Source of the DNA: an uncultured bacterium
Lineage (GTDB): Bacteria; Babelota; Babeliae; Babelales; JACPOV01
NCBI GenBank assembly: GCA_963744715.1
Contig: CAVUUR010000007.1
Location: 96,001 to 160,000 of the forward strand
DNA length: 64,000 nt
Direction of reading: 5' to 3'
Shown: piece by piece, positions 1-58,078 of the stretch
Layout of the letters: each line of letters starts with the position of its first letter
How positions within the stretch are numbered: position 1 is the first letter of the stretch
The notes under the pieces: model-generated
The model's input: the letters and a program-made list of their open reading frames with translations, nothing else
Database searches by the model: none
Told to the model about the DNA's origin: nothing
Translations under genes and position numbers: made by a program

Positions 1-69
1 TAGCTCAGTTGGTAGAGCGCATGGATGGCATTCATGAGGCCACCGGTTCGATTCCGGTCAGCTCCACCA
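1..69 (+). tRNA. tRNA-Ala(GGC), 5' end cut by the window edge
   Basis: D-arm TAGCTCAGTTGGTAGAGC; anticodon stem CATGG/TCATG with loop ATGGCAT; T-loop GGTTCGATTCC; ends AGCTCCACCA. Confidence 0.95.
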
Positions 70-181
70 GTTTTTGACTGAAATTGATCAAACACTACAT
101 TTTATTTTCGATGCATAAAAGCTGTCATGCATTTTTTATACTTTTTATCTTAGCGCTTTCAACATAACCAAGAGACACCTT

Positions 182-697
182 ATGAATAATTTTTTACGTA
201 CAACACTTTTTATAAATATATTAACCGTATTATCTTGTGCTGGCATGGATAAAGCAATTCTTCCCCTATTTCCCTCAATTAGTAAAGCTAATGATGGTGA
301 TTTTAATAGAATCTTAAATGGTATGCAAAATATAAAGCTGAACAAAGATACTCGCGCTATATTAAAAAATTTTGCTACATACCACAAGCAATCATTAATC
401 TATCAAGAACAAAACTCACCACAATCGATATTAGATGATCCTACCTCCAACTTATACATCAAAGAAATTTTAGGGTTGACTGTGTTTGGTGTTGCAACAC
501 TAGGCCTCGTCTACGCTTCAACGTATCCTGAAATATTGTCACGTAAACATATGATATTATATCCAGCAACTTTTTTATCTGGTTACGTATGCATAGAAGG
601 ATTAAAAAAAATATTCTGTCGAGATAATTTAAACAATCAAATAGCAAGCCTTGAAGTCATAGAAAAAACGTTAGATAACTATAACGTTCAAGATTGA
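182..697 (+). CDS. hypothetical exported/membrane protein
   Basis: 171-aa ORF with signal-peptide-like N-terminus and two C-terminal hydrophobic stretches. Confidence 0.75.
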   Translation: MNNFLRTTLFINILTVLSCAGMDKAILPLFPSISKANDGDFNRILNGMQNIKLNKDTRAILKNFATYHKQSLIYQEQNSPQSILDDPTSNLYIKEILGLTVFGVATLGLVYASTYPEILSRKHMILYPATFLSGYVCIEGLKKIFCRDNLNNQIASLEVIEKTLDNYNVQD

Positions 698-703
698 AAT
701 CAA

Positions 704-735
704 AAGTGAAACAGCTCAAAAAAGCTGTTTCACTT
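704..735. terminator. probable bidirectional intrinsic terminator
   Basis: 13-bp inverted repeat AAGTGAAACAGCT-caaaaa-AGCTGTTTCACTT between convergent genes. Confidence 0.75.
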
Positions 736-748
736 ACAAAAAAAATTG

Positions 749-2167
749 CTAACGTCTTTCATTAAGCCATATTTCACTAACCATTTTACTTAACTGGCTA
801 CGCTCACTGTGATGCAGGAATACGGTTCCAAAAAGTGATTGTCCTTTAAATTTGTTGCTGGCAACTACCAATCCATTGCTACTGAAATCCAAATACGGCA
901 AATCAATTTGATACGGATCACCAACAAGAATAATTTTACTGCCCTCGCCCACACGGCTAATTAATGTTTTAACTTCATGCGGCGTTAAATTCTGTGCCTC
1001 ATCAATTAAAATATATTGATACGGAATTGATCTACCACGCATGTAGGTGATAGCTTCAAGACTTATTTTGCCTTCTTTTATCAGCACATCTAATGATTCC
1101 AATTTTCTTTGTGATCGATCGTGCCGTTTTTGCTTTTTATGACGCGAGCCACCCTTATCAGCATACACCATAGCACCTTCATATGATTGCTGCTCCATAG
1201 TGCCCGTGCTCACCGCATGAACAATAAAATCCATATTATCATAAATTGGTTGCATCCAACTGTGCAGTTTTTCTTCAATAGTTCCGGGTAGATAACCGAT
1301 ATCAGCGCCAAGGGGAACCACCGGCCGCGAAACGAGCATTTTGCTAAAATCATCGAGCGTTAAGACTTGATATAATCCTGCCAATAAGGCAAGAAATGTT
1401 TTACCCGTGCCTGCTGGACCGAGCAGATTAACTAATTGGATCTGCGGATCGAACAATAAATCGAGTGCCATCACCTGTTCAATGTTGCGTGCTTCAAGCG
1501 GCCACTGCAAATACGGTGCTTCGACTTTTTTAAATTGTGAACCGCCTAAATAACGAAATAGTTTATAATTGAAGGGATTATTCTGGCTTTCCAAAACTAT
1601 AAATTCATTAACAACTAAATCATAATGCTCAGGAATTTCTTCTAACTCTCCAGGAAATTCTTTTTTTAATGAAATTGAGGGGACTGCAACATGCACCCAT
1701 CCTTTATAAAAATTTTTTGGTGATGTATGTTCTTTTAAGTAATCTTGCGTTGCAATGCCAAGAACATCTGCTTTAATACGAGCATTTAAATCTTTTGAAA
1801 TAAAGATAACTTCGCACCCCCTGCTCTGTAACTGGGCAACGGTATACAAAATCATATTATCAACGATATTTAAACTCAATTCTGCTGGTAATGAAATAGT
1901 TTTCTCCGGCACAAACAATACCCTAAAGATACCACCATTATCAAGGGGAACTCCGTCTCTGAGCGAACCCTTAGACCGTAACGAATCAAGATATCGAATA
2001 ACTTGACGTGCATTATATCCACGATCAGTATTTTCTTCTTTAAACCTATCGAGCTCCTCTAGCACCAATATAGGGATTCCTAGCGTAGCACAATTAAAAG
2101 AAAATATTGATTCTGGGTCATGGAGTAACACATTAGTATCAAGAACATATATTCGTTCTGAAATCAT
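749..2167 (-). CDS. PIN-domain/PhoH-like ATPase (PhoH2/YlaK type)
   Basis: N-terminal YVLDTNVLLHDP PIN motif; GPAGTGKT Walker A; GYLPG, YMRGRS, DEAQN and GDPYQID PhoH motifs. Confidence 0.93.
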   Translation of the reverse strand: MISERIYVLDTNVLLHDPESIFSFNCATLGIPILVLEELDRFKEENTDRGYNARQVIRYLDSLRSKGSLRDGVPLDNGGIFRVLFVPEKTISLPAELSLNIVDNMILYTVAQLQSRGCEVIFISKDLNARIKADVLGIATQDYLKEHTSPKNFYKGWVHVAVPSISLKKEFPGELEEIPEHYDLVVNEFIVLESQNNPFNYKLFRYLGGSQFKKVEAPYLQWPLEARNIEQVMALDLLFDPQIQLVNLLGPAGTGKTFLALLAGLYQVLTLDDFSKMLVSRPVVPLGADIGYLPGTIEEKLHSWMQPIYDNMDFIVHAVSTGTMEQQSYEGAMVYADKGGSRHKKQKRHDRSQRKLESLDVLIKEGKISLEAITYMRGRSIPYQYILIDEAQNLTPHEVKTLISRVGEGSKIILVGDPYQIDLPYLDFSSNGLVVASNKFKGQSLFGTVFLHHSERSQLSKMVSEIWLNERR

Positions 2168-2341
2168 ATACTCCTTCCTGACTTTTTTTAGTAAAAATCA
2201 TAGTCACTCCCTGAACCCTATCATACTGTTTCCGGAGTAGCAATCATCAACGTCAAAGATTTCTTTTTTCATGAACATTCCTATAAACATCAAAACTGAT
2301 ATACTAAGATATACTTGTTGAGCACCTTAAGGAGTTAATGT

Positions 2342-4051
2342 ATGGATAATAAAAAAAATTTACAAAATTTACGCCATTCAGCTGCACATTTAATAGCTCA
2401 TGCTGTTAAAGAATTATTTCCTCAAACACTACTTACTATTGGACCAGCTACGCAAGAAGGTTTTTTTTATGATTTCCTTCCTCAACATAATTTTAAAGAT
2501 GAAGACCTTCCGCTCATCGAAGCAAAAATGCAGGAAATAGTTGAACGAGATTTACCACTTACTCATAAAGAAATTTCAAAAGATGAAGCTCGTACATTAT
2601 TTGCAAACAATCGCTTTAAGCTCCAGTTGATTGATGAAATTCCTGGGCAAACCGTAGGTTTATCGCAACAAGGAGATTTTTTTGACCTGTGCAAAGGGGG
2701 ACATGTAGCTTCAACTAAAGAGCTCAAACATGTTAAATTATTAGGTATATCCGGTTCTTATTGGAAAGCAGATAAAAATAATCAAGCTTTACAGCGAATA
2801 ACGGGTACGGCTTTTTTCACGCAGGAAGAGCTCGCAGCCTTTTTGCATAGAAAAGAAGAAGCGTTATTATATGATCACCGTCGGCTCGGCAAATTACTCA
2901 ATCTTTTTTCATTTCATGATGAAGGTGTCGGTTTTCCTTTTTTTCATCCTAAAGGCAAACTCATTATTAATATTCTGATTGATTATCTCAGACAGCTTCA
3001 AATAAAAAATAATTATCAAGAAATATCGACTCCCATATTGTTAAATGATGAGCTATGGAAGCGATCTGGGCATTATGCACATTACAAGGATAATATGTAT
3101 TTTTGCCAGATTGATGATCAAAGTTATGCCATCAAACCCATGAACTGTCCCGGAGCATTCTTAGTCTATGGGGAACGCCCTCATTCATACCGTGAACTTC
3201 CGGTTAGATTATCTGAGTTTGGCCTTGTTCATAGACACGAACTTTCAGGAGTTTTGCATGGATTAATGCGCGTAAGGGCATTTACTCAAGATGATGCCCA
3301 TATTATTTGTACTTTCGATCAACTGGAAGAAGAAATTCAACACGTTATCAACCTAACCTATACGGTATTAAAACGATTTAATTTTAATCAGGTAAGGGTT
3401 GCTATCTCAACAAAACCTATAAATGCTATGGGCAGTGATGATTTGTGGGAAAAAGCAACTAAAGCTCTTAAAAATTCTTTAGACAAGAATAATATTGAAT
3501 ATACCATAAAAGAAGGTGAAGGGGCATTTTACGGGCCAAAAATCGAGTTTTTAATTCAGGATTCGATGGAACGTGAATGGCAATGCGGAACCATCCAAAT
3601 TGATTTTTTCCAATCACATAACTTTGACCTTACGTATATTAGTTCTCAAGGCACTAAAGAGCGCCCTGTTATTATTCATAGAGCCATCTATGGTTCATTA
3701 GAACGTTTTTTTGCTATTTTATTAGAACATTACAAGGGAAACCTTCCATTGTGGTTGGCTCCAGTTCAACTAAAAATACTAACCATCACTGATGAACAAA
3801 TCTCCTATGCCCAAACTATTATGCAATTTTTGCAACCACATGGGTACAGGGTGGAATTGGATCAATCTTCGGATCAAATTTCAAGTAAAATTAAAGCCGC
3901 ACAGCTCGAAAAAATACCGATTATGATTATTATTGGTAAAAAAGAAGCCGCCAACGGCACGGTTACGCTCCGTTATAATGATGGCAAACAAGAATTTAAT
4001 GTAGAAAAAGAAACGTTATTAGCAACTTTACATGCTTTACAACAAGCATAA
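2342..4051 (+). CDS. thrS: threonyl-tRNA synthetase (no N-terminal TGS domain)
   Basis: RHSAAH, DLCKGGH, DHRRLG, KPMNCP, RVRAFTQDDAH, EGEGAFYGPKI, HRAIYGSLERF. Confidence 0.98.
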   Translation: MDNKKNLQNLRHSAAHLIAHAVKELFPQTLLTIGPATQEGFFYDFLPQHNFKDEDLPLIEAKMQEIVERDLPLTHKEISKDEARTLFANNRFKLQLIDEIPGQTVGLSQQGDFFDLCKGGHVASTKELKHVKLLGISGSYWKADKNNQALQRITGTAFFTQEELAAFLHRKEEALLYDHRRLGKLLNLFSFHDEGVGFPFFHPKGKLIINILIDYLRQLQIKNNYQEISTPILLNDELWKRSGHYAHYKDNMYFCQIDDQSYAIKPMNCPGAFLVYGERPHSYRELPVRLSEFGLVHRHELSGVLHGLMRVRAFTQDDAHIICTFDQLEEEIQHVINLTYTVLKRFNFNQVRVAISTKPINAMGSDDLWEKATKALKNSLDKNNIEYTIKEGEGAFYGPKIEFLIQDSMEREWQCGTIQIDFFQSHNFDLTYISSQGTKERPVIIHRAIYGSLERFFAILLEHYKGNLPLWLAPVQLKILTITDEQISYAQTIMQFLQPHGYRVELDQSSDQISSKIKAAQLEKIPIMIIIGKKEAANGTVTLRYNDGKQEFNVEKETLLATLHALQQA

Positions 4052-4154
4052 TATTCCTCATATAATTTTTTCACGGGTAATAGATACAAATAAAGTATAA
4101 AATATTTTTTTTTAGTAAAAATAACAAAAAATTAAAATTAAAATATAAAAAATA

Positions 4155-4184
4155 TTGACTTTTAAAGTTTAAAGTATGTACCAT
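4155..4184 (+). promoter_or_regulatory. sigma70-like promoter of the histone-like gene
   Basis: TTGACT-18bp-TACCAT upstream of RBS AAAAGGGAG. Confidence 0.5.
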
Positions 4185-4236
4185 CAATAATGAAGATGAA
4201 ATATGTATTATTAATCCTTTACAAAAGGGAGTAGTC

Positions 4237-4407
4237 ATGGTTAAAAGAAAAGTTGCAGCTAAAAAAGCCGCTCCAAAGAGAAAAGTCGCTAAAAGAGCCG
4301 CTTCAAAAAGAAAAGTTACCAAGAGAGCTGCTACAAAAAGAAAAGCTGCTAAAAGAGCACCTGCTCGAAAAGGTCATGCTGCTGCTAAAAAAGCTGCAAG
4401 CAAATAA
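4237..4407 (+). CDS. histone H1-like Lys/Arg/Ala-rich DNA-condensing protein (56 aa; not in ORF track)
   Basis: Manual translation MVKRKVAAKKAAPKRKVAKRAASKRKVTKRAATKRKAAKRAPARKGHAAAKKAASK; strong RBS, upstream promoter and downstream terminator. Confidence 0.88.
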   Translation: MVKRKVAAKKAAPKRKVAKRAASKRKVTKRAATKRKAAKRAPARKGHAAAKKAASK

Positions 4408-4423
4408 TCTTAATTCGTTAAAC

Positions 4424-4460
4424 AAAAACGCTGTATTCCAGTAATGATTACAGCGTTTTT
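4424..4460. terminator. bidirectional intrinsic terminator
   Basis: AAAAACGCTGTA...TACAGCGTTTTT between convergent genes. Confidence 0.75.
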
Positions 4461-4466
4461 CTATTT

Positions 4467-5069
4467 TTAGCGACTTTTTGTTACATCAACTCTTTTGCAA
4501 AGATCAAAAAGAGGACATTTCGAACACCAGGGAGAGATAGGAACGCAAATATTTTGTCCCCACATTACTAAAAGTTCATTAAATTCAATCCAATGGTGCT
4601 CCGGTACAACTTTTTTAAGGGCTCGTTCCGTTTCCTCGGGAGTTTTTGTTTTAATAATACCGAGCCTATTTGAGATTCTATGCACATGAGTATCAACACA
4701 CAGTGCGGGAATGCCAAAGCCAATTCCTAGAACTAAATTAGCCGTTTTTATGCCAACACCAGAAATAGAACGTAATTGTTCTTGCGTATGGGGCACCACG
4801 CCCGCAAATGTTTCAATAATATCCTTACTCACACTATGAACTAAGAGCGATTTGCGCCGATAGAAACCTAAGGGATATAAGATACGATGAAGTTCATGTA
4901 ATGGAATGGCAAGAAGTTCTTGGGGCGTTTTTGCTTGCTTAAAAAGTTTCCTACAAACCGGCAGGCATATGATATCTTTCGTTCGTAATCCGAGTAAACA
5001 CGCGATAAGTATAAGAAAAGGGTCTCGACCAAATTCTTTAACGATATAATACATCATCGGCTTTGTCAT
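4467..5069 (-). CDS. nth: endonuclease III (true start probably further upstream, near 5120-5126)
   Basis: HhH motif SISGVGIKTAN, VDTHVHRISNRLG, C-terminal CxxxxxxCxxCxxxxxC 4Fe-4S motif; frame stays open upstream (VHIEKIIAILREH). Confidence 0.93.
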   Translation of the reverse strand: MTKPMMYYIVKEFGRDPFLILIACLLGLRTKDIICLPVCRKLFKQAKTPQELLAIPLHELHRILYPLGFYRRKSLLVHSVSKDIIETFAGVVPHTQEQLRSISGVGIKTANLVLGIGFGIPALCVDTHVHRISNRLGIIKTKTPEETERALKKVVPEHHWIEFNELLVMWGQNICVPISPWCSKCPLFDLCKRVDVTKSR

Positions 5070-44172: not shown

Positions 44173-45191
44173 ATAACAAAAAAACACTGTGCCTAGTAGC
44201 CGGTAGATCTGGCGGACATATTATTCCCTGTTTAACACTTGCTGAAAAATATTTACAGCAAAAACAATATACTGCTTTTATTTTTTTTACATCAAAAAAA
44301 AATCTTGATCACCGTATCATTGCTAACTACTCTTGTATTGATCAAATTATCTCATTATCTCTTGAAAATATTCCTTATAAGCAACCATGGAAGTATCCTT
44401 TATATATAATTTCTTTTTTATGGTCATGTTTTGTTAGTATTTATAGATTGTGGGAAATAAAACCTGAAAAAATTATTAGCACGGGTGGCTATATAGCACT
44501 TCCTGTTTGTATTGCAGGAAGGTTATTAAAAATACCTATTGAGCTTTGGGAATTAAATGCTATCCCCGGAAAATCCGCACTGTTATTAGCGCGTTTTTCA
44601 ACAACTATTAACACCTGTTTTAAAGAAGCGCAACATTATTTTCCATTTGCTACCTGCACCATGAATGAATATCCCATACGATTTGAAAAGCATAGTTCTC
44701 TTTCTAACAAAACCTTCACTAAGCCTATAATTATATTAATATTAGGTGGATCGCAAGGATCTCAATTTCTCAATACACTTATGCAAAAATGGCTTATTAC
44801 TGCACATGATCTTTTTTCGCATATTCATATCATTCATCAAACGGGTAATAATTTTTTGGATGCAGTAAAAAAATTCTATCGTGATAACGATATTTCAGCA
44901 GATGTTTTTGACTTTGACGATCAACTCTATCAGTACTATCAGCAAGCTACCATCGTTATTTGCCGAGCCGGAGCGGGAACGTTATTTGAAACAGTTTTTT
45001 TTAAGAAACCTTGTATTACGATTCCTCTTGAGACCAAACAAACCAATCATCAATATGCCAATGCCTGTTCGTTGGCTGAGCAATACCCTAATATTATTAC
45101 TGTTTTTCGCCAACACGATATCGATGTTAATTCTGCATCATTTTTTTCAACGTTACGAAATTACATCACGAAAGCCATTGAGACGGCTTAG
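44169..45191 (+). CDS. murG: UDP-GlcNAc:lipid I transferase
   Basis: GRSGGHIIP, TGGY, ELNAIPG, GGSQGS, HQTG, CRAGAGT, HQYANA. Confidence 0.93.
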   Translation: MNNKKTLCLVAGRSGGHIIPCLTLAEKYLQQKQYTAFIFFTSKKNLDHRIIANYSCIDQIISLSLENIPYKQPWKYPLYIISFLWSCFVSIYRLWEIKPEKIISTGGYIALPVCIAGRLLKIPIELWELNAIPGKSALLLARFSTTINTCFKEAQHYFPFATCTMNEYPIRFEKHSSLSNKTFTKPIIILILGGSQGSQFLNTLMQKWLITAHDLFSHIHIIHQTGNNFLDAVKKFYRDNDISADVFDFDDQLYQYYQQATIVICRAGAGTLFETVFFKKPCITIPLETKQTNHQYANACSLAEQYPNIITVFRQHDIDVNSASFFSTLRNYITKAIETA

Positions 45192-47085
45192 CGCCAAGCC
45201 CATAAATATAATAATTAATACCTGCTTTGCGTATAATAGGATAATTTTCGATACTAATCGGCCCAGAAATAAACATATCGAAAATATGTTGTCCTTGACT
45301 TGAAAAAGTTCTTCCAGATGGCTGAGCAGTCGGATTAACAAATAATCCTTTATTGCCTTTTTGTTGCATATATTCTTTGATAGTAGCGGTAACGGCATTT
45401 TTATTAGTTGGATATGAGCTAATCCATTGGGGGATTTTTTCTGCTATTTCTTTCTGAACCGCATCTTGCAAGGTAATCTGGCCCGCAGAATTTTTTATGT
45501 AATAACTATCATCAAAATAAAATGCATTAATTAATTGATCAATTCTCAATTCAGCTGGCTCCACATAATAATAAAACGTATCTTCCGTGATACCATGCGG
45601 TGTAAAATAATCGGCTAATAGCAGATACCCAATAACACCAGAATTATCTTTTCCCTTCGTATCATCAATAATATTATTTTTTTTTGTCTCCATTAATCCA
45701 TGTTTTAGCGATTGCGTAATAGCGGTAGAAATTGATTCCGGTGCTATTTTACCACTACTTAATCTATCAAGAAATTGTTGAGCTTTTTTATCATCTTGCG
45801 TATTTAATAGCACACCGTATAACCATGCTTCTTTTTCTGCAATTTGTGGGCGAATAAGTTCAAAATCGAGCACAGATCCCCGAGCAACTTTTTTTACTAC
45901 CGTAAAATCATGTGTTTTATAGGTAACCCACAACGTTTCTGGCGTATCAAAAGGAATAGCAGAATAATCTTCTTTTGCTTGATTTTCTGACATTTTTTTA
46001 TCAATTGCTTCTGCTTGCGCTGCCGATTGATACCAAATATGGCACTCAACTGGATTAATATCGCGAACACGTTCAGTCGGCTGCTTAAAATTACCAACAG
46101 AAAGTCCCTGCATACCAATAGATAATGCGCCTTTATTATCGTATACCTCATAGGTATACATCATAGAACCGGCAGGATCATATTTTTTTGTTTTTTCATC
46201 AAATGAAACATTGGCTATTCCCTCGGAAGCAATCGGTAAATAACCAATAACGTTGTCTTTATGTGCAAACACAAATGCACGCTTTTCATCTTTTGCTGGC
46301 CTAATAGAAGTTGGCTTACCCGTCGTTGACTGTAATAAACTGAAGGATTCCGGCTCTAATGAGACCGTATACGATTTTTCATCTTTTGAAAATGTTAAAG
46401 TAACATCATTGGCTGTGGAGCTATTATAAAAAGTGCCAATGAATTCTTGCGTTGTTGCTTTTATACCTAAGTACTCACCTTTAACCTGTCCTGCATCAGT
46501 ATAGGTTCGATAATAATAAATATTATCATCATGAGCTGGCCATGGATAAATATCTTGGCGCAATAAACTATATTTTTTCAATTTTTCTGTTGTAACGATC
46601 CCTCCAAAAAGTCCTTTAATTATTGCCTCGCCTCCACCACCAATATTCAAATTTTCAGTTCCTTTTGGGCTGGTAGAATATTGTTGAATATCAGCTCGTC
46701 CAGCATCAGCACAAAGCCACACGCTAATGTATAATTGTTGTTTATAAAAAGTTGTTCCGCTGGTATCATTCGGCATAACAACCGCACTGTTTGCAAGATT
46801 TCCTGAAAAATCTGCCCCCAATACCGGTGTGACATGTTGAATAGCAACGAAAATAGGTGCCGGCGCATCATTCCATGCTAGTAAGCTATAATGATAGTCG
46901 GCAGTAACAAAACCAAAACTTTGTCCCATTCCTTTAATAAAACCTGATGCACCATCCCATGTATTTTGCGCCGTCGTAACTACCTGATTTTTTATGTCAT
47001 TCCATTTTTGATCCACATCACGAGAATAAATGGAAACACTGTGTATTAATAAAAAGAAATATAACATTGTTAATATTTGTTTCAT
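45166..47085 (-). CDS. large hypothetical exported protein
   Basis: AAGGAG RBS before ATG 47085; signal peptide; ~640-aa ORF with no recognised domain. Confidence 0.75.
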   Translation of the reverse strand: MKQILTMLYFFLLIHSVSIYSRDVDQKWNDIKNQVVTTAQNTWDGASGFIKGMGQSFGFVTADYHYSLLAWNDAPAPIFVAIQHVTPVLGADFSGNLANSAVVMPNDTSGTTFYKQQLYISVWLCADAGRADIQQYSTSPKGTENLNIGGGGEAIIKGLFGGIVTTEKLKKYSLLRQDIYPWPAHDDNIYYYRTYTDAGQVKGEYLGIKATTQEFIGTFYNSSTANDVTLTFSKDEKSYTVSLEPESFSLLQSTTGKPTSIRPAKDEKRAFVFAHKDNVIGYLPIASEGIANVSFDEKTKKYDPAGSMMYTYEVYDNKGALSIGMQGLSVGNFKQPTERVRDINPVECHIWYQSAAQAEAIDKKMSENQAKEDYSAIPFDTPETLWVTYKTHDFTVVKKVARGSVLDFELIRPQIAEKEAWLYGVLLNTQDDKKAQQFLDRLSSGKIAPESISTAITQSLKHGLMETKKNNIIDDTKGKDNSGVIGYLLLADYFTPHGITEDTFYYYVEPAELRIDQLINAFYFDDSYYIKNSAGQITLQDAVQKEIAEKIPQWISSYPTNKNAVTATIKEYMQQKGNKGLFVNPTAQPSGRTFSSQGQHIFDMFISGPISIENYPIIRKAGINYYIYGLGAKPSQWLS

Positions 47086-47325
47086 AATAACTCCTTTTTG
47101 GGAAAACATCAGTTAGTGTATCAAACTATATCAGGCAATTGTTATGATATTCGATAGTTCAATAATACTTTTTATATTATCTTCTAATACTTTAATTATT
47201 GTAAAAAAATTCTATCTAAAAAAATCTCTTTAAAAAAAATAATTTCTCTTGATTTGCTCAATCGTTGTGCTAGGTTCTAAAAAATAAAATGAAGCACAAT
47301 GTTTAGTAAAAAAAGAGAGTGAGTA

Positions 47326-49359
47326 GTGATGAAGAGATTCTTTTTTGTATGCATGATACTTTTTACACCATTCAGATTTTTTGCGCATTCCAGTACCGAT
47401 TATATACCCAAGTATGGTAATAACAATTATCCACAAATAACTGGGCACACTTCTACATCTTATCAAAAAAATAATGGAAATGTTCTTTTACAAGCTCTTA
47501 AAAAAATAGCAGAGCCCGCAGCTGTTCTAGCTTTTTTAGTATGCTGTGCATACGAATGGTGGAAGGGAGAAAAAGAATTAAAAGATCCGTATAAAAAAGA
47601 TCGGAATTATGATAAAGAACTGCGCAATCGGTTAGAGCAAGAATATCCTAAGCTGCTTGCACTTGCTCATACATCTAACTATGATAGCGTACCCCCTCAT
47701 GTAATCAAGCAGCGATTGAATAGTTTAATAGTGCATACTAATAATCATGCTACGTATGAAATCAGTACAAAAACATTCTTGTTATCTGCATCAGCACAAC
47801 AACTATTAGGCGAACATAATCTTCCAATCAATACATACCAAACATTGCGAGGATCGACCTTGCAGCATACTATCCATACGGAATGCTTGCAGGTTATTGA
47901 TAGTATTGCAGGTACGAGCGTAACGCAAACCAATAATTTTCTAATGTCATTCGTTGAACTGAGCAGACAACATAATTATGCCGGCATGGTTACCGATGCA
48001 CTTAACCTCCTTGATGTGTGTTGGTCTTTTATGCGATCGACTGCGCTCGCCATCGGCGAAGGTATTTTGGAAGAAATCAATGCTACTAAAACTGCAATAA
48101 GCAACGCAATTACTAATCCACAAGGTGCTGTGATTGAATTAGTAACCAGTGCAAAAAATACTGCCTATGGTTTAATGCACGCTATTAAAAAATATCCAGC
48201 ATTATTTTCTGTTGTAGTACTACCAGGCCATGAACCATTACTTGCTGCAGGTGAATTAGTTAACTTGGGAAATTCTTTTCGACACTATTCTATTAATAAT
48301 TCTGAAGAATTATTAGGAATAATAGCATCGACACAACATACCCTTAATAATTACAAAAGTCCTCCTCTGGCATTTGCACAAAGCATAGAAAATACCGCGC
48401 ATTGTTTAGTTCGTTTCATTAAACAACATCAATCACTTATTTCGATTTTACAAGAGAATTATAAGAAACAAGCATTAACCCTCACTCAAGAAGTGAGCCG
48501 AACCGCACATGCATTACAATTGTATTGCGTCAATAATCCGTATGATGCACTCAAACAGAGTTCACGTTTGGTTACACAAACTGTTCTGTTGCCTGCAACA
48601 GCCCATTGTTTGAATAAAATTTTTACGGCTGCGTATCATAAGATTCCTGCCTATGTTGAAAAAATAAAACAAGGCAGCAGCGCACTCACCGCACAAGAAG
48701 TACCGGTTGCTGTTGCATTGCAAACAACTGAAATTATTACACCAGCTGCATTACAAGAAGAATTTGTGGTGTTAGCAAATACGGTTCAAGAAGAAACCGC
48801 TGCTGGATCACTCGTCAGTAGTATTCCATTAGTTCAAGACCTTGTAACAAATTTAACGGTGCTTTTAGAACCAGTGAGACAAAAATTGCCGCAGTTCAAA
48901 CAAATGTTTGATAATACACGAAAAGGATTTGGTGAGTTTGCTACTAAATATATTAAAATTCCTTATAATCATATTTTAGGTATTGATTGGACTATCGATG
49001 CAAAGGGCATAGCAAAGTGGTTCGGGTTTCATCATGACCTTATGGGCGCTATTGAAAAAAGTAAGCTTGTGCAATTCGTGAATAAAGTTGTACACAGTAA
49101 CGGATTCTACACTGCAGATGTTATTATTAATGGTATTCAACAGCCTAAAACTTTTTTCCCGCAACATTGGTCGCACGAAAAGGTAATTAGTAAAGTTCTG
49201 GAGGCATATGACAATTTCATCAAGAATGGCGCTAAAAATTACAAATTAAATAAAGATGGCAAATATATTTTAACCGGATTCATTGAGGAAGGCATAGAAA
49301 TCAAAATGTATATCACTAAAAAAGGTCAAATAACAACCGCTTACCCAATATTGACCTGA
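47326..49359 (+). CDS. polymorphic toxin with C-terminal bacterial EndoU nuclease domain
   Basis: HILG...GFHH...KTFFPQHWS..KV...AY...ITTAYP; N-terminal signal peptide and long helical region; followed by small immunity-like genes. Confidence 0.85.
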   Translation: MMKRFFFVCMILFTPFRFFAHSSTDYIPKYGNNNYPQITGHTSTSYQKNNGNVLLQALKKIAEPAAVLAFLVCCAYEWWKGEKELKDPYKKDRNYDKELRNRLEQEYPKLLALAHTSNYDSVPPHVIKQRLNSLIVHTNNHATYEISTKTFLLSASAQQLLGEHNLPINTYQTLRGSTLQHTIHTECLQVIDSIAGTSVTQTNNFLMSFVELSRQHNYAGMVTDALNLLDVCWSFMRSTALAIGEGILEEINATKTAISNAITNPQGAVIELVTSAKNTAYGLMHAIKKYPALFSVVVLPGHEPLLAAGELVNLGNSFRHYSINNSEELLGIIASTQHTLNNYKSPPLAFAQSIENTAHCLVRFIKQHQSLISILQENYKKQALTLTQEVSRTAHALQLYCVNNPYDALKQSSRLVTQTVLLPATAHCLNKIFTAAYHKIPAYVEKIKQGSSALTAQEVPVAVALQTTEIITPAALQEEFVVLANTVQEETAAGSLVSSIPLVQDLVTNLTVLLEPVRQKLPQFKQMFDNTRKGFGEFATKYIKIPYNHILGIDWTIDAKGIAKWFGFHHDLMGAIEKSKLVQFVNKVVHSNGFYTADVIINGIQQPKTFFPQHWSHEKVISKVLEAYDNFIKNGAKNYKLNKDGKYILTGFIEEGIEIKMYITKKGQITTAYPILT

Positions 49360-49373
49360 AAATAAGGAAATCA

Positions 49374-49754
49374 ATGAATAATTTTTTTAAACTAATGCTG
49401 ACAGAAAACTATTATTGTTATGATGATGCCGATACCGTAGAGATGTGTATTTTAAGCCGCTTTTTAACATCTGATGTTTACTGCTTTGGCTCACGGTATA
49501 AAGAATGGGCACTTTTTGATACTCAATATACTAAGTATGGAGGTAACATAACTTTTCTTGAAAAAAAAGATGGATACATTATTATCAGTGATCAATATTC
49601 TGAAGAACCGGATGGGGGACCTTATTTTCCTATCGAACAACCGGAGTTTGTAAAACTTCTTGATGAATGGGAAAATATTTGCAAACAAAACCCTAAACCA
49701 CAAGAAATTCTCATTACGTATGATGGCAAGCATTTCACGTTTGCTTGTAAATAA
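49374..49754 (+). CDS. putative cognate immunity protein
   Basis: 126-aa ORF with AAGGA RBS directly after the toxin; two paralogs downstream. Confidence 0.75.
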   Translation: MNNFFKLMLTENYYCYDDADTVEMCILSRFLTSDVYCFGSRYKEWALFDTQYTKYGGNITFLEKKDGYIIISDQYSEEPDGGPYFPIEQPEFVKLLDEWENICKQNPKPQEILITYDGKHFTFACK

Positions 49755-49755
49755 T

Positions 49756-49971
49756 CCTAAAACTTTTTTCCCTCAACATTGGCCACGAGAAAAAGTGATC
49801 AGTAAGATTCTTGAAGCCTAGGACCATTTCATTAAAACTGGCGCAAAAAATTACAAATTACAACCTAATGGTAAATATTTGGTGACAGGATTCACTGATG
49901 AAGGTATAAAAATAGAAATGTATATTACTAAAAAAGGGCAGATAACAACCGCTTACCCGGTACTAGAATGA
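49756..49971 (+). pseudogene. orphan EndoU toxin C-terminal fragment
   Basis: PKTFFPQHWPREKVISKILEA*DHFIKTGAKNYKLQPNGKYLVTGFTDEGIKIEMYITKKGQITTAYPVLE; no start codon; TAG at 49819-49821. Confidence 0.85.
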
Positions 49972-49981
49972 GGATAATTTA

Positions 49982-50365
49982 ATGAAAAAAAATTATTTAA
50001 AAATTGTTACCCATGGTCTTTCTAGTTACGAACATACAGATACTAGGGAAATGTGTATACTTGGATGTTTTTTAACATCAGATGTTTATTGTTTTGGTCC
50101 ATCAACGTATAAAGAATGGGCACTTTTCGATACTGAATATGCTAAGTATGGAGGCAATATAACTTCTCTTGAAAAAAAAGATGGATACATTATTGTCAGT
50201 GATCAATATTCTGAAGAACCTGATTGGGGACCTTATTTTCCCATCGAACAATCAGAGTTTGTAAAACTTCTTGATGAATCGGAAAAGATTTGCAAACAAA
50301 ATCCTAAGCCACAAGAAATTCTTGTTACGTACGACGGAAAACATTTCACGTTTGCTTGCAAATAA
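49982..50365 (+). CDS. putative immunity protein (paralog 2)
   Basis: Very similar to 49374..49754 (FLTSDVYCFG, KEWALFDT, KYGGN, TYDGKHFTFACK) except at the N-terminus. Confidence 0.78.
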   Translation: MKKNYLKIVTHGLSSYEHTDTREMCILGCFLTSDVYCFGPSTYKEWALFDTEYAKYGGNITSLEKKDGYIIVSDQYSEEPDWGPYFPIEQSEFVKLLDESEKICKQNPKPQEILVTYDGKHFTFACK

Positions 50366-50396
50366 TTATAAACCTACTTAACTATTAGGATTACCA

Positions 50397-50768
50397 ATGG
50401 GTAACGATATTTCTAGATGGTCAGGATTTTATCATGATTTTATGGGAACCGTTGAAAATAGTGGACTGGTTCAATTTGCTGAAAAAGTAGTAGATGAGCA
50501 TGGATTTTACACGGCAAAAGTTACCATGGATGGTATAAAAAAAATGCGAACCTTTTTTCCTCAGCATTGGACACCCGAAAAAGTAATTAGTAAAATTCTG
50601 GAAGCTTACGACCACTTTACTAATAATGGTTCAAAAAATTATGAGCAGCTTCCTAATGGCACTTATCTAGTTACTGGATTAATTGAAGAAGGTATAGAAC
50701 TCGAAATACATATAACTAAAGAAGGACAAATGACATTCATATATCCATTATTGTATAAGGGTAGTTAA
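50397..50768 (+). CDS. orphan EndoU toxin tip (standalone, diverged)
   Basis: GFYHD, RTFFPQHWTPEKVISKILEAY, GIELEIHIT..GQMTFIYP; AGGA RBS. Confidence 0.75.
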   Translation: MGNDISRWSGFYHDFMGTVENSGLVQFAEKVVDEHGFYTAKVTMDGIKKMRTFFPQHWTPEKVISKILEAYDHFTNNGSKNYEQLPNGTYLVTGLIEEGIELEIHITKEGQMTFIYPLLYKGS

Positions 50769-51292
50769 TGAAAAAAAATTATTTAAAAATAGCTCTTAAA
50801 GGAAATCGCTATAGTTATAAAGAAGCAAGTATTCAAGAAATGGCAATGCTTGGATGTTTTTTAACTTCTGAAGTCTTATGTTTTGGATCAACCTTTAAAG
50901 AATGGGCTCTCGATAATAATGACTTAGGTAGTTATGGAGGAAATATAATCGAACTTGAAAAAGAGGATAAATATATCGTTCTCAGTGAACAAATGTTTCA
51001 AAAAGTTAAAAAAGGGCCTTATTTTGCTATACAACAGTCGGAATTCGTTAAGCTTCTTGAAATATGGGAAAATATTTGCAATCAAAACCCTAAACCAGAA
51101 CAAGTTTTTATTATCTATGATGGCCAACAATTAACGATTTCTCATAATGCAGAAATAATATGGACAAACAATACACCTTCCAGGCAAAGGAGATTAACCG
51201 TAGGCCGTTTGTTAAATTGGCTACTCGTTGCTATGTTTTTTATGTATGAAGGAAAGCATATAATCCAACGTTTGTTCTTCAGTCATGGCTGA
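50768..51292 (+). CDS. putative immunity protein (paralog 3, C-terminally extended)
   Basis: FLTSEVLCFG, KEWAL, YGGN, GPYF, QNPKP; tail overlaps the convergent cmk end. Confidence 0.72.
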   Translation: MKKNYLKIALKGNRYSYKEASIQEMAMLGCFLTSEVLCFGSTFKEWALDNNDLGSYGGNIIELEKEDKYIVLSEQMFQKVKKGPYFAIQQSEFVKLLEIWENICNQNPKPEQVFIIYDGQQLTISHNAEIIWTNNTPSRQRRLTVGRLLNWLLVAMFFMYEGKHIIQRLFFSHG

Positions 51293-51911
51293 ATTATCAA
51301 CAACAATAGCATTGGTTGGAATAACCAATGGATCAATGGCACGATTACTATCGCGCTCATCACGCTCCTTAACTGCAGCGCAAGCTTCGTTGATGGATAC
51401 AACAAAACCTCTGAGTTTTTGATCATGTTGCCATCTTAACGCACGCACTTGCAATGATGCTGTTAAAAAAAATTTTATCTGAGCATTGGGGAATACTACC
51501 GATCCCATATCACGACCTTCTACCACAATATCGTGACTATCGGCTATAGTTCTCTGTAATGCATATAAAGATTTTCTAACCAACACATTAGTAGCAATGA
51601 GTGATGATTGTCTATCAATTGATGCCGATTTTAAAAAAGGAGTAATTTCTGAATTATCAAAAAAAATCTTGCCGCCATGTGCACTATCGGGTAGATAAAC
51701 AAAATGATCCGCTTGCAATACTTTTTCAATATCATCTGCAGTTACCTGCGTTAACCGTTCTTCTGTGTACTGATAATACGTTGTAAAAACATACGGCCAA
51801 AGCTCGAAAAAGTAAACCACTGCTTAAATAATGTATATGCAGCACTCCCGCTAATCTACGAGCTATTGTCGATTTACCACTTGCGGTTGGGCCGTCGATA
51901 GTAATAATCAT
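51221..51911 (-). CDS. cmk: cytidylate kinase with one frameshift near 51795
   Basis: [24 protein letters not shown] in one frame; [22 protein letters not shown] in another; span is 3n+1. Confidence 0.88.
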
Positions 51912-53735: not shown

Positions 53736-55580
53736 TTAGCTTCCAAACTCGAATTTGTCTTGCTCTATACGTTCTTCAATGAGTTCCAAAAACAAATCAT
53801 TATGCATCATTACATTAAGTTGTCCCACTAATGATAGCTGCTCAAATTGGTTCAAAGAATAGTTAAAATTAAAGGTACTGCAGTATCCCTCATCAAGACA
53901 TTCTTGTACATTAAATTCCGAGAGATTTAATTTTTCAATTTGTGCAGCAAGTTTTGGATCCTCTTGGGCACGCGTAATAAGATCATCATCTTTAAGGAAA
54001 TTAATATATATAATAATTGGAGCATTATTACTAGATGATCGATATACCTGCACGGTTTTATCACTCTTTTCTTCATCTTTTGCATAGGTAATCTTGTACA
54101 CACGTTCAAGGTCCGCGAATGCTTTTTTTAATTCATCAGCACTTTCTACATTGCTTGATCCATCACCAACAAAAATAATATCTAATTGTCTATCGGGCCT
54201 AAATAAAGGTCTCAGTGGAATATTATAGGCTATTCCTGCATCGATAAAGGTTAAGAGATCACGATCATGCAACCAGCTTCCAACTCCTTCATAGCCTTTA
54301 AACGGATTATTAATCGACGCTGGCGCTGCACGTTTTTTTCCTATTCTTGTATCACCTAAACTGATAAGAACGCGTTCTACCAATGCATTCTTCATCCTCT
54401 GAAAAATTGAAGGATTTTCGGACAGGGCAACGACTTTTTCTTCATCCCCCTCTTGCTCATCCTGTACAACCTCAAGTAATAGCTCTGCACCTTTCTTATC
54501 GAGGCCATCTCCTAACATTATTCTTTTAAGATCGTTAAGATTAACCGCAAATGCAGATCCAAAAATACCCATTAAAAATCCAAAACTTTGTTCGGGAGCA
54601 AAATCTTGCGATTTTCCCGCATTAAAAGATCTACCAAATGCAAAAGCAGGTAATGCTATATCCAATTCCAGATTCCTGATTTCTTCAGGATTAAATTCGT
54701 ACCAATTATACATATATACATGTTCCGCCAAACTATGCATTGAAACTGCTGTATAAATAGGCCAAGGCGCCGCACCTGATTTAATATGAAAATATTGATC
54801 AGAAAGATGTTTTCTCTGTTGATAAGCCCCAAAATCCGATAGTAAAGCATGCGCGAGTAGTGCGCCGTAAAAATCCACAGAACTTATCGGTTGTCCAAAA
54901 ACAACTTTAGGAAAAATAATATCATTGGCTACACGATCTTTACTAAAAGATAAAATATTATTTTTACTAACCGGGTTAAAAATATCGACTTCTATTTTTT
55001 GTTTGAGTTTATTATTAAATGCCTCAACAGATAATGACCGTTCAGCCGACTGCATAAATACATAAGGGCCAATCCACCAGGAAGAACCTGAAAGGCCAAC
55101 CATATATTGTGCTGCATCAAAAATACCTAGCTCCTCAAACCCTTTTAGATAAGCGCTGGTTAATATCATTGCTCTATAGCCACCACCACTAAATACAAAA
55201 CCTATTCTTGGTATTGCATTATGGGGTATTTGCAATCCCGTATATTTTTGCAAAGCTATTCTCGTTTTTTCAAGGCGATTACTAAGGAATTCTCCTTCCA
55301 ATGAATATCCTGGATCAAGTCTTTTTGTATTTGCATACAATGCAGCGGGCCTATTACGATTTGGGTCTTTTGCCATGAGCTGTTGTATGACATTTTCCTT
55401 GAATTTATATACTAATTGCAGTACGTGCTCAATGTCTTCTAAACGTATTTTACTAAGGCGTTCTAAACTATTTTCAATTAATGTATCGCTAAGATCTTTT
55501 GAAATACTTTGTTGAATATAGGTCCAACGTACAAGAACAAAAAACGCAACACCGCTTAAAAAAATTATTCTCTTTTTCAT
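53736..55580 (-). CDS. cPLA2/lysophospholipase-like (PLA2_B-type) phospholipase
   Basis: FSGGGYRAM oxyanion loop, GLSGSSW nucleophile, PWPIYTAV, WYEFNP, MGIFGSAF, IDAG. Confidence 0.85.
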   Translation of the reverse strand: MKKRIIFLSGVAFFVLVRWTYIQQSISKDLSDTLIENSLERLSKIRLEDIEHVLQLVYKFKENVIQQLMAKDPNRNRPAALYANTKRLDPGYSLEGEFLSNRLEKTRIALQKYTGLQIPHNAIPRIGFVFSGGGYRAMILTSAYLKGFEELGIFDAAQYMVGLSGSSWWIGPYVFMQSAERSLSVEAFNNKLKQKIEVDIFNPVSKNNILSFSKDRVANDIIFPKVVFGQPISSVDFYGALLAHALLSDFGAYQQRKHLSDQYFHIKSGAAPWPIYTAVSMHSLAEHVYMYNWYEFNPEEIRNLELDIALPAFAFGRSFNAGKSQDFAPEQSFGFLMGIFGSAFAVNLNDLKRIMLGDGLDKKGAELLLEVVQDEQEGDEEKVVALSENPSIFQRMKNALVERVLISLGDTRIGKKRAAPASINNPFKGYEGVGSWLHDRDLLTFIDAGIAYNIPLRPLFRPDRQLDIIFVGDGSSNVESADELKKAFADLERVYKITYAKDEEKSDKTVQVYRSSSNNAPIIIYINFLKDDDLITRAQEDPKLAAQIEKLNLSEFNVQECLDEGYCSTFNFNYSLNQFEQLSLVGQLNVMMHNDLFLELIEERIEQDKFEFGS

Positions 55581-57045: not shown

Positions 57046-58078
57046 ATGGAAAGGCTTTGCTAGCGATAATTGCAGGTATTCATCCGGATATTTTAAAAGC
57101 CATTAGTGATGCAAACCAAGGACATAGCAAGGCATATGGCGCTGACAGCTATACCCAAGAGGCAATCGCCCTATTTAAACAACATTTTGGTGATAATATT
57201 GACGTTTACTTTGTATGCAATGGAACTGCTGCAAACGTACTCAGTTTAAATACCTTAATTAAATCCTATCAAGGAGTAATATGCGCCGATTCAGCACATA
57301 TTAACGTTGATGAATGTGGCGCGCCAGAAAATTATACCGGCTGCAAGCTACTCACAGTACCTACAAAGGATGGTAAGCTTACTATTAAAGATATTAAGCA
57401 CCATTTGATTAACCTTGGTGATCAACATAAAGTTCAGCCAAAAATTATATCGATTACACAAAGCACTGAATTGGGGGGACCCTTTATACTCTTGAAGAAA
57501 TCAAAACAATAACTGACTTTGCTCATGAAAACAATCTTTTCGTACATATGGATGGAGCACGTTTAAGTAACGCTGTTGTCGGTTTAAACACAAGCCTAGC
57601 GGCTATCACAAAAGACGTTGGCATTGATGTGCTTTGTTTTGGTGGAACAAAGGATGGTATGATGCTTGGTGAAGCTGTAATATTTTTCAATAAAGAACTC
57701 TCTAAAGATTTTCAATATATTCGCAAACAAAGCATGCAGCTGATTTCCAAAATGCGGTTTATTTCAGCACAATTTATTGCACTCTTAAGTAATAATTTAT
57801 GGTTTAAAAACGCTCAGCATGCCAATGCCATGGCACAACTCTTAGCTAGCGAAATAAAAAAAATTCCCCAAATCAAAATGAGCAAAAATGTTGAAGCTAA
57901 TGCAGTGTTTGCCTACATTGATAAAACATTGATTCCCTTATTGCAAAAAAAATATTATTTTTATGTTTGGGATGAAACAACGTCCGAAGTTCGTTGGATG
58001 ACCTCATGGGATACCACCAAAGAAGATATTTTAAATTTTGTTGCACATATAAAGGAAATTCTAGCAGCAAAGAACTAA
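57046..58078 (+). pseudogene. ltaE: low-specificity L-threonine aldolase with frameshifts
   Basis: FASDN, NGTAAN, HINVDECGAPE, TQSTELG, HMDGARL, FGGTK, SKMRF spread over several frames; indels near 57049, 57071 and the G6 run at 57473. Confidence 0.85.

Follow-up and report, generated by a model that had tools for sequence, protein, structure and literature searches.

The window analysed here, a 64,000-nucleotide (nt) stretch of a genome assembled from an uncultured member of Candidatus (Ca.) Babelota, carries at 47326-51292 a large gene ending in an EndoU ribonuclease domain, followed by a close succession of small genes on the same strand. This raises the question of what kind of system the locus encodes and against which cells it is directed. 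We conclude that the large protein belongs to a new polymorphic toxin family of a known class, found in nearly half of the sampled genomes of the phylum. In our judgement it is probably a secreted antibacterial RNase that is accompanied by its cognate and by spare antidotes, the family having spread through Ca. Babelota. The parts of the locus, with lengths in amino acids (aa), are:

47245-47325, + strand: upstream segment common to all three genomic copies (alignment of the copies on contigs C7, C9 and C11)
47326-49359, + strand: full-length toxin gene, 677 aa
47326-47388, + strand: predicted Sec signal peptide, about residues 1-21, no lipobox (hydrophobicity heuristic)
47632-48177, + strand: conserved, family-defining helical domain, residues ~103-284 (alignments, AlphaFold2 model)
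48178-48837, + strand: variable helical linker, residues ~285-504, low-to-medium model confidence
48838-49356, + strand: EndoU ribonuclease tip, residues ~505-677, with His549, His569 and Lys608-Thr609 (PF14436, fold)
49374-49754, + strand: imm1, predicted cognate immunity protein, 126 aa (tip linkage, predicted complex, fold)
49756-49971, + strand: half-tip remnant corresponding to toxin residues 607-677, start-less, in-frame TAG at 49819-49821
49982-50365, + strand: imm2, intact orphan immunity gene, 127 aa
50397-50768, + strand: tip3, orphan EndoU tip of 123 aa, which has an ATG of its own preceded by AGGA (PF14436)
50768-51292, + strand: imm3, orphan immunity gene, 174-aa open reading frame (ORF), first ~126 aa homologous to imm1

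A preliminary description of this DNA had given the order as toxin, imm1, tip fragment, imm2, tip and imm3, co-oriented and tightly spaced, and all of these parts are present, with intergenic gaps of 14, 1, 10 and 31 nt and a final 1-nt overlap of tip3 and imm3. The three immunity genes are homologs (imm2 and imm3 are 77% and 50% identical to imm1), and at the DNA level tip plus immunity gene occur three times in tandem with 68-80% identity, far above chance. All tips of the array belong to one EndoU family; the polymorphism inside it is allelic, and other kinds of tip sit at other loci. The C-terminal ~48 aa of imm3 are absent from its homologs and overlap with a cmk-like frame of the opposite strand.

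The EndoU domain at the C-terminus of the toxin, also proposed before, was confirmed by a Pfam match of PF14436 to residues 567-675 (E 4.6e-13; tip3, E 3.6e-11). An AlphaFold2 model based on a 57-row alignment has a block pLDDT (predicted local distance difference test) of 87-98 over residues 511-677. The four best rows for the fold of the tip were Nsp15 (5yvd; Z 9.0, root-mean-square deviation (rmsd) 3.5, 123 aligned), EndoU (9ftw; Z 8.0), CdiA-CT STECO31 (5hkq_A; Z 7.6) and XendoU (Z 7.1). Counted over the 54 rows covering these columns (3 of the 57 were dropped for gaps), H549 and H569 are each conserved in 52 and K608 in 41. The main tip thus combines profile match, fold and His-His-Lys triad, the marks of a bacterial EndoU; neither the half-tip nor tip3 has the triad. 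The half-tip covers the final 71 tip codons, starts with the PKTFFP motif and lacks both histidines. Tip3, which is 59% identical to the toxin tip, has lost His549 and carries Tyr for His569 and Arg for Lys608, and since all three catalytic positions are missing or changed it is likely inactive. Among the tips of the array, only that of the main toxin looks active; the array is for the most part made up of decayed tips with intact immunity genes, which weakens the preliminary interpretation.

A HMMER search of 1.84 billion representatives returned 566 proteins, and an iterated profile of residues ~103-284 gave 63 matches among 151 of these and the query. The family emerged only with HMMER: when residues 25-545 were used in a word-indexed search, nothing but two paralogs from this genome came up, and a scan of genomes with a single protein confirmed none of 14 candidate stretches. 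The named sources of the protein matches were Dependentiae/Babeliales, and 17 genome loci were titled Dependentiae/Babeliales (8), 'bacterium' (8) or 'uncultured Pseudomonadota' (1), both searches reaching close relatives only. An alignment of 35 domain sequences matched 120 of the 261 genomes of the phylum at E 1e-5, 13 of which supplied alignment sequences and so match by construction. Matches were present in 87 of 189 high-quality genomes, 79 of 145 genera and 16 of 21 families, with at most 13 per genome. All 260 other genomes of the phylum are assigned to one order with the genome of the window.

From the listed matches 60 stretches were picked by hand, strong scores and varied families being preferred and the first 20 coming from the EndoU-toxin search; together with earlier loci they yielded 81 domain-bearing proteins of at least 400 aa with room downstream. 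The last 130 residues of these proteins fell into 29 clusters, the largest of which (25 proteins) is EndoU, and some of the singletons may be truncated genes. Six kinds of tip could be named by Pfam: EndoU, Ntox17, Ntox35, Ntox21, Colicin_D and Cytotoxic (colicin E3-type). In the 46 proteins of the second set EndoU was found 8 times (6 over the cut-off), Ntox17 4 times, Ntox35 3 times, Ntox21 twice, Colicin_D and Cytotoxic once each and DUF4258 once (under the cut-off); the other 26 had no match. Of these toxins, colicin D cleaves tRNA, and Cytotoxic and Ntox21 cleave 16S rRNA. In this genome, two further full-length paralogs have the same domain and tips unrelated to EndoU. The locus therefore has what defines polymorphic toxins, a constant N-terminal region with variable C-terminal toxin domains. 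The suggestion that it is such a system was supported by the 29 clusters and six named toxin families on one constant domain, the same N-terminus being found before strongly varying C-termini. At the level of sequence, tips are seen to be exchanged on the same constant domain, both across the phylum and within this genome.

The two paralogs with other tips are located at 2041-4950 of locus L004 and 6-4225 of locus L005 (81-84 kb and 38-42 kb of contig C7 of this genome) and each is followed by genes of its own (DUF2247, an imm1-family orphan that is a gene or a fragment); the tips of L005 and L029 fall into one cluster. Islands in which two to four full-length toxins stand in tandem, with tips that differ or have diverged, occur within single genomes (L035, L060, L061, L062, L032 and L048). 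The domain is present twice in the long members L039 6856-11019, L041 1533-5453 and L057 866-3781, the first two of which precede double-length immunity genes. In L059 (1025-3592) a pretoxin HINT domain (PT-HINT, residues 97-174) stands before the conserved domain and the tip is Ntox21.

The genes behind the toxins are coupled to the kind of tip. A co-oriented gene starts at most 50 nt downstream of 75 of the 81 members, and a gene of the imm1 family is the first one after 17 of 23 EndoU tips and after 2 of 58 others, both of which cluster with EndoU tips. In loci that were not used to build the imm1 profile, these figures were 7 of 10 against 0 of 36. Linked downstream genes specific for a tip, as expected of immunity genes, were thus found. 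When 69 downstream genes were scanned, PF24172 (CdiI) was matched by 2, DUF2247, DUF6980 and a transposase by 1 each and weak TPR models by 3, leaving 61 with nothing. Orphan EndoU cassettes (L036, L039, L043, L045, L052 and others) and runs or arrays of immunity genes (L012, L036, L043, L045), a further trait of polymorphic toxins, also occur outside the window.

The model of imm1 is confident (pLDDT 94.7). Its best fold neighbours among 48,161 chains were two type VII secretion system (T7SS) chaperones (Z 7.0 and 5.9), followed at ranks 3 and 4, with Z 5.6 each, by CdiI STECO31 (5hkq_I) and NMB0503 (4q7o), which from the title of the structure we take to be the CdiI of strain MC58; these two alignments have rmsd 3.7 over 92 residues and 2.9 over 76. 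The two CdiI proteins have a common fold and guard similar EndoU tRNases without cross-protection (PMC9086364; this and most other papers are cited for parts of their text). Foldseek gave nothing for imm1 at E 0.001, and there was no sequence match to either protein. The DUF5376 profile (PF17346) matched none of 40 imm1-family members at E up to 0.1; the ESM Atlas places imm1 beside DUF5376 clusters (0.91-0.94), and the two may be remotely related. The earlier suggestion of a new immunity family holds at the sequence level only, as the matches of the predicted fold include two solved EndoU immunity proteins. The modelled family is probably old in fold, because these weak CdiI matches fit the EndoU context.

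A complex predicted for the tip and imm1 scored 0.62, against 0.00 for the best of 3 controls; the mark set for this score is reached by 116 of 157 solved and 2 of 215 mismatched pairs. The runs share at least 91% of contacts, with a partner pLDDT of at least 87. H569 and K608 both contact imm1 residue 58 in this model, and imm1 is predicted to plug the active site of the tip over His569/Lys608. The pass may reflect likeness, because a similar complex (5HKQ) has already been solved.

AlphaFold2 models the part of the toxin in front of the tip as helical almost throughout, in agreement with the preliminary description. Within it the conserved domain is predicted with confidence to form a bundle of helices (block pLDDT 76-97 over residues 91-250) and terminates in a Gly-rich helix (242-265). 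Its near-invariant positions are R130, G176, Q180, H184, E186, N217, D230, G246 and P265; all but the last were counted across 83 domains and are 87-98% conserved (R130 in 81, H184 in 76 and N217 in 77). By a hydrophobicity heuristic the N-terminus is signal-like in 27 of 28 members, the window toxin included as had been proposed, compared to 22 of 362 internal windows and 15 of 51 immunity proteins. A lipobox pattern was seen in 3 of the 28, and the conserved domain usually lies 100-1000 residues in, not directly after the signal.

No Pfam, NCBIfam or PDB family matched the N-terminal region of the toxin. The known delivery and pre-toxin families of Pfam did not score on the window toxin or 74 relatives, NCBIfam had no family on 57 full-length members, and 35 domain sequences gave one stray match each in NCBIfam and PHROGs. 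A profile of the domain had no match under E 0.1 among PDB sequences; weak matches there (a nucleoside transporter, CENP-K and a farnesyltransferase) were rejected as chance. In a fold search with the domain within the whole 677-aa model the best rows were generic helical bundles (Z at most 6.9), and Foldseek with the whole model returned nothing at E 0.001. The absence of Rhs, CdiA, LXG, PAAR and MafB features, pointed out before, was thus confirmed in Pfam and NCBIfam. The suggested new delivery class is retained as an unrecognised N-terminal family, but would more aptly be called a new family of a previously described class (PMC3482391, section 37), that of a signal peptide plus a lineage-specific N-terminal domain, with MafB-like logic.

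The genome assembly (1.26 Mb, 12 contigs, 86% complete) contains three copies of a unit of ~3.1 kb, on C7, C9 and C11, among unrelated neighbours. The unit runs from ~80 nt upstream of the start codon, where the likeness of the three copies begins at 47245, to the end of imm2. The C9 and C11 paralogs are 85-87% identical to the window toxin and also have the half-tip junction after imm1; the C11 toxin ends 10 codons early. No flanking transposase was recognised by eye in the ORF lists of the three copies, and a comparison with empty sites met with a gene order that is not kept in the relatives examined. The paralogs are mosaic, with 134 runs among 360 informative sites against a mean of 231 and a minimum of 198 in 10,000 shuffles, which points to gene conversion between the three copies. 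Residues 1-500 are under purifying selection (dN 0.05-0.08, dS 0.22-0.32), and synonymous divergence rises to 0.77-1.25 in the tip, as expected if tips were replaced or held apart while the constant part was homogenised. Differences between the paralogs affect 15 of 26 predicted interface residues and 29 of 102 residues in the rest of the tip (Fisher p 0.01), and 18 of 32 predicted interface residues fall in the part that is repeated by the half-tip.

The half-tips are 70-82% identical throughout and do not group by locus or position (6 of 7 units, the pattern having missed the C11 cassette), so that no particular tip swap can be traced. Their interpretation as a maintained reservoir of swappable half-tips was considered and held to be less likely than that of decaying remnants, because all three half-tips are changed in or beside the conserved motif.

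Candidate export components in this genome include a locus with two secretins, a pair of GspE/PilB-type ATPases scoring over the cut-off and two Omp85 proteins. The two large secretin genes stand in a co-oriented cluster with membrane-anchored neighbours (C3 1886-10272, - strand), a candidate type II secretion locus. The sheath protein VipB/TssC of type VI secretion systems (T6SS) had no match in this 86% complete genome (the control was positive in E. coli), Rhs, PAAR, VgrG, LXG and WXG100 domains were absent from the toxin and the scanned relatives in Pfam, and neither a two-partner secretion (TPS) domain nor haemagglutinin repeats were found in the toxin (Pfam; helical model). A genome-wide search for ShlB, made without a positive control, gave no match. 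The gene upstream of the window toxin is divergent and there is no cdiB neighbour. More generally, the nearest upstream genes of 69 of the 81 members form no common family apart from a small AAA-ATPase group, and no mafA-like partner is conserved among them.

This group consists of AAA+ ATPase-like genes, co-oriented and at most 200 nt upstream of 10 of the 81 members, mostly of more than 850 aa (L029, L050, L056, L064, L070, L072, L074, L076, L078 and L079; the profile was built from 8 of the 10). Their products are signal-peptide-like where the start is visible and often have a C-terminal hydrophobic stretch and a Gln-rich coil. An AAA ATPase with a signal-like start is also encoded two genes upstream of another paralog in this genome (C7 35612-37240). 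The window toxin locus has no such gene upstream. It is possible that these ATPases are accessory factors.

The course of events that we propose would start with the Sec signal peptide, which is predicted to carry the toxin to the periplasm. From there it may exit by a secretin/GspE-type machine or in outer-membrane vesicles, for which domain 103-284 and the Gly-rich helix could act as export tag, anchor or target-entry module. The cultured relative Chromulinavorax has two membranes and a Sec system and sheds vesicles (PMC6561590), and MafB leaves the cell by means of a signal peptide, independent of the secretin PilQ (PMC4287609). Judging from its fold and triad, the tip, perhaps after proteolytic release, would cleave RNA, tRNA being the probable substrate, in a competitor, for which a related Babelota strain sharing the protist or vacuole is the most plausible candidate. 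In the producer, imm1 is predicted to bind across His569/Lys608. As the sequence shows, the three EndoU copies exchange tracts, and displaced tips decay while immunity genes stay intact; the retained genes would keep the cell immune to sibling variants. A bolder version, which we regard as doubtful, makes the domain the core of a delivery route of its own: phylum-wide nuclease toxins would reach bacteria co-infecting the eukaryotic cell, and perhaps also its mitochondrion, without CdiB, T6SS or Rhs, a secreted AAA+ ATPase being the accessory of the long members.

Of the two roles considered in the preliminary description, kin competition is favoured here over attack on host RNA. The latter would make the proteins host-directed effectors like Amoebophilus APD1/APD2, with tips that cut cytosolic or mitochondrial RNA of the protist and downstream genes that only protect the producer. 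As translation in mitochondria is of the bacterial type, they would be a possible site of action for tRNases and rRNases; the several full-length toxins of a genome could moreover be used side by side. Babelota are strictly intracellular (PMC12172432), and in Chromulinavorax, which sheds vesicles and is wrapped by the host mitochondrion, 44% of the coding sequences have signal peptides (PMC6561590). However, the host effectors of endosymbionts come without immunity genes (PMC3482391), whereas 75 of the 81 members here have a coupled downstream gene. Orphan immunity genes moreover stay intact while tips decay, at this locus and at L012, L036, L043 and L045, which weighs against an attack on the host because self-protection alone does not require them. 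The predicted interface diversifies between paralogs, and the tips that could be recognised belong to the usual interbacterial repertoire; ubiquitin-system domains were absent from the 74 proteins scanned. On balance we find a host-directed function unlikely.

The presence of the unit at three unrelated chromosomal sites with different neighbours, its patchy distribution over genomes and the tract exchange between copies would also suit addiction modules of a selfish kind, spreading by ectopic recombination, whose toxin hits cells that lose immunity without being delivered to others. Such modules would not need a 500-aa N-terminal part under purifying selection, and a signal-like N-terminus (27 of 28) would take the toxin out of the cytoplasm. 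Plasmids and phages gave no match in a tblastn search with one domain, and a single-pattern scan of viral contigs confirmed 0 of 41 stretches, both with limited reach. This is the least probable of the readings we weighed. Hardly more probable is that the constant domain is a remote member of a named domain (MafB-N, PT-TG, LXG/WXG, Microscilla-N, APD1/2 or a colicin/CdiA entry domain). The Gly-rich helix and the long amphipathic helices resemble pre-toxin regions in general, one member carries PT-HINT, and the ESM Atlas neighbours are EndoU toxins (0.80), MafB (0.79), CdiA (0.78) and PT-TG (0.78), all below the lead threshold of 0.9. None of these families scored in Pfam on the window toxin or 74 relatives, and the NCBIfam, PHROGs and PDB searches reported above added no more than the two stray matches.

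Several observations speak against a secreted antibacterial toxin with cognate immunity. Six of the 81 members have no close downstream gene and 6 of the 23 EndoU members no imm1-family gene following. The CdiI matches of imm1 are weak (Z 5.6 is below the reliable range of the tool) and rank behind the two T7SS chaperones. There is no recognisable tip in 26 of the 46 second-set proteins. With 141 of 261 genomes lacking a match, the system is either dispensable or was missed; moreover, the loci were hand-picked among the strongest matches and the genomes are not independent. A conserved upstream partner gene is absent, unlike with mafA, and a Sec-exported protein would have to cross the two membranes of a target bacterium. 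Finally, strictly intracellular bacteria may seldom meet rivals, and in the part of PMC12172432 used here co-infection by Babelota is not mentioned.

Some further features of the window and the genome were recorded. The segment 47245-47325 possibly contains a promoter and ribosome-binding site; a consensus scan called no promoter in it, and the promoter/terminator scan stood at shuffle level (21 against 20.1). The divergent neighbour (45166-47109, - strand) encodes a 647-aa signal-peptide-like protein without a family match, which was found in 7 of 8 same-family genomes searched. Downstream, a gene at 51221-51911 (- strand) that from its sequence we take to be cytidylate kinase-like (cmk-like) is split by a frameshift. 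DNA contigs cover the toxin locus in patches, and the contig of a near-identical strain lacks one base at 51794 (depth 2), so this break is probably an assembly error. Other split genes are located at 57057-58078 (+ strand), L004 6072-7140 (- strand) and L003 3-1186 (+ strand), namely a threonine aldolase-like gene, one that by eye is mnmA-like and a toxin paralog spread over three frames, and they suggest indel errors in the assembly; with several housekeeping genes split, some of the gene breaks may be errors. C1 and C8 have a GC content of 61% and 46%, compared to ~35% elsewhere, and are possibly contaminant or rRNA contigs. At 53736-55580 (- strand) a 614-aa protein with a hydrophobic N-terminus and a eukaryote-type lysophospholipase catalytic domain (PF01735, E 1.6e-27) is encoded, which from these features looks like a host-directed effector.

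Babelota are widespread protist parasites with reduced genomes, whose secreted proteins are mostly unexplained, and with the reading preferred here a large multi-copy family gains a concrete predicted job. It would imply that Babelota attack other bacteria, either within a host cell or between host cells, with consequences for superinfection exclusion and for the symbionts and pathogens that a protist can carry. The profile also pulls out many uncharacterised toxin tips and partner genes, as the second set illustrates, and raises the question by which route a Sec-exported toxin of 600-1500 aa enters the cytoplasm of another cell without a known injection machine. A search of the open literature found no published report on polymorphic toxins of Dependentiae/TM6, a prior description being possible; the word toxin is not mentioned in the full text of PMC12172432 and PMC6561590.

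Among known systems, the family is most readily compared to MafB/MafI of Neisseria (PMC4287609). Both have several loci per genome and a variable tip that may be an EndoU RNase, immediately followed by an immunity gene; tip cassettes, some with a start codon and some lacking one, stand downstream, and in both the outer-membrane step is unclear. The signal peptide and the lineage-restricted constant N-terminal domain of MafB also have likely counterparts in the Babelota family. Unlike in MafB, PF06255/DUF1020 has no match in the toxin (E up to 1) or 74 relatives, there is no conserved mafA-like lipoprotein gene upstream (the upstream gene in the window is divergent), and the cassettes at the window locus are decayed pieces belonging to one tip family; moreover, MafB is confined to one genus, whereas the Babelota family spans a whole order or phylum. 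Microscilla-N and APD1/APD2 of Amoebophilus likewise have a constant domain after a signal peptide and highly variable C-termini; APD1/2 come from an amoeba endosymbiont, and the authors predicted more such families (PMC3482391, section 37). APD1/2 have a lipobox and host-directed tips (ubiquitin, GTPase), whereas the Babelota family mostly lacks a lipobox (3 of 28 members have one), has interbacterial nuclease tips with coupled downstream genes and carries its domain farther from the signal.

The tip itself resembles CdiA-CT STEC_O31 (5HKQ; PMC9086364), in which H187, H204, K261 and T262 parallel H549, H569, K608 and T609, and which prefers tRNA-Glu. The predicted immunity fold may be similar to that of CdiI (5HKQ) and of NMB0503 of N. 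meningitidis MC58 (4Q7O), both with Z 5.6. Sequence identity to CdiA-CT/CdiI is 8-16%, and unlike CdiA the 677-aa protein is without haemagglutinin repeats, TPS domain and adjacent cdiB. The TANFOR toxins of Bacteroidetes, a different phylum, are also a class of polymorphic toxins recognised by an N-terminal domain confined to one phylum (PMC7073777); a like restriction may apply to the Babelota domain, and the comparison in sequence rests on the lack of a Pfam match. Interbacterial toxins of intracellular bacteria have been proposed before, for Rickettsia and Protochlamydia. The cryptic CdiA-CT-like toxin/antidote modules of Rickettsia (PMC9111745), put forward as interbacterial weapons of obligate intracellular bacteria, are mostly small remnants of larger toxins, whereas the Babelota toxins are full-length, intact, multi-copy and phylum-wide.

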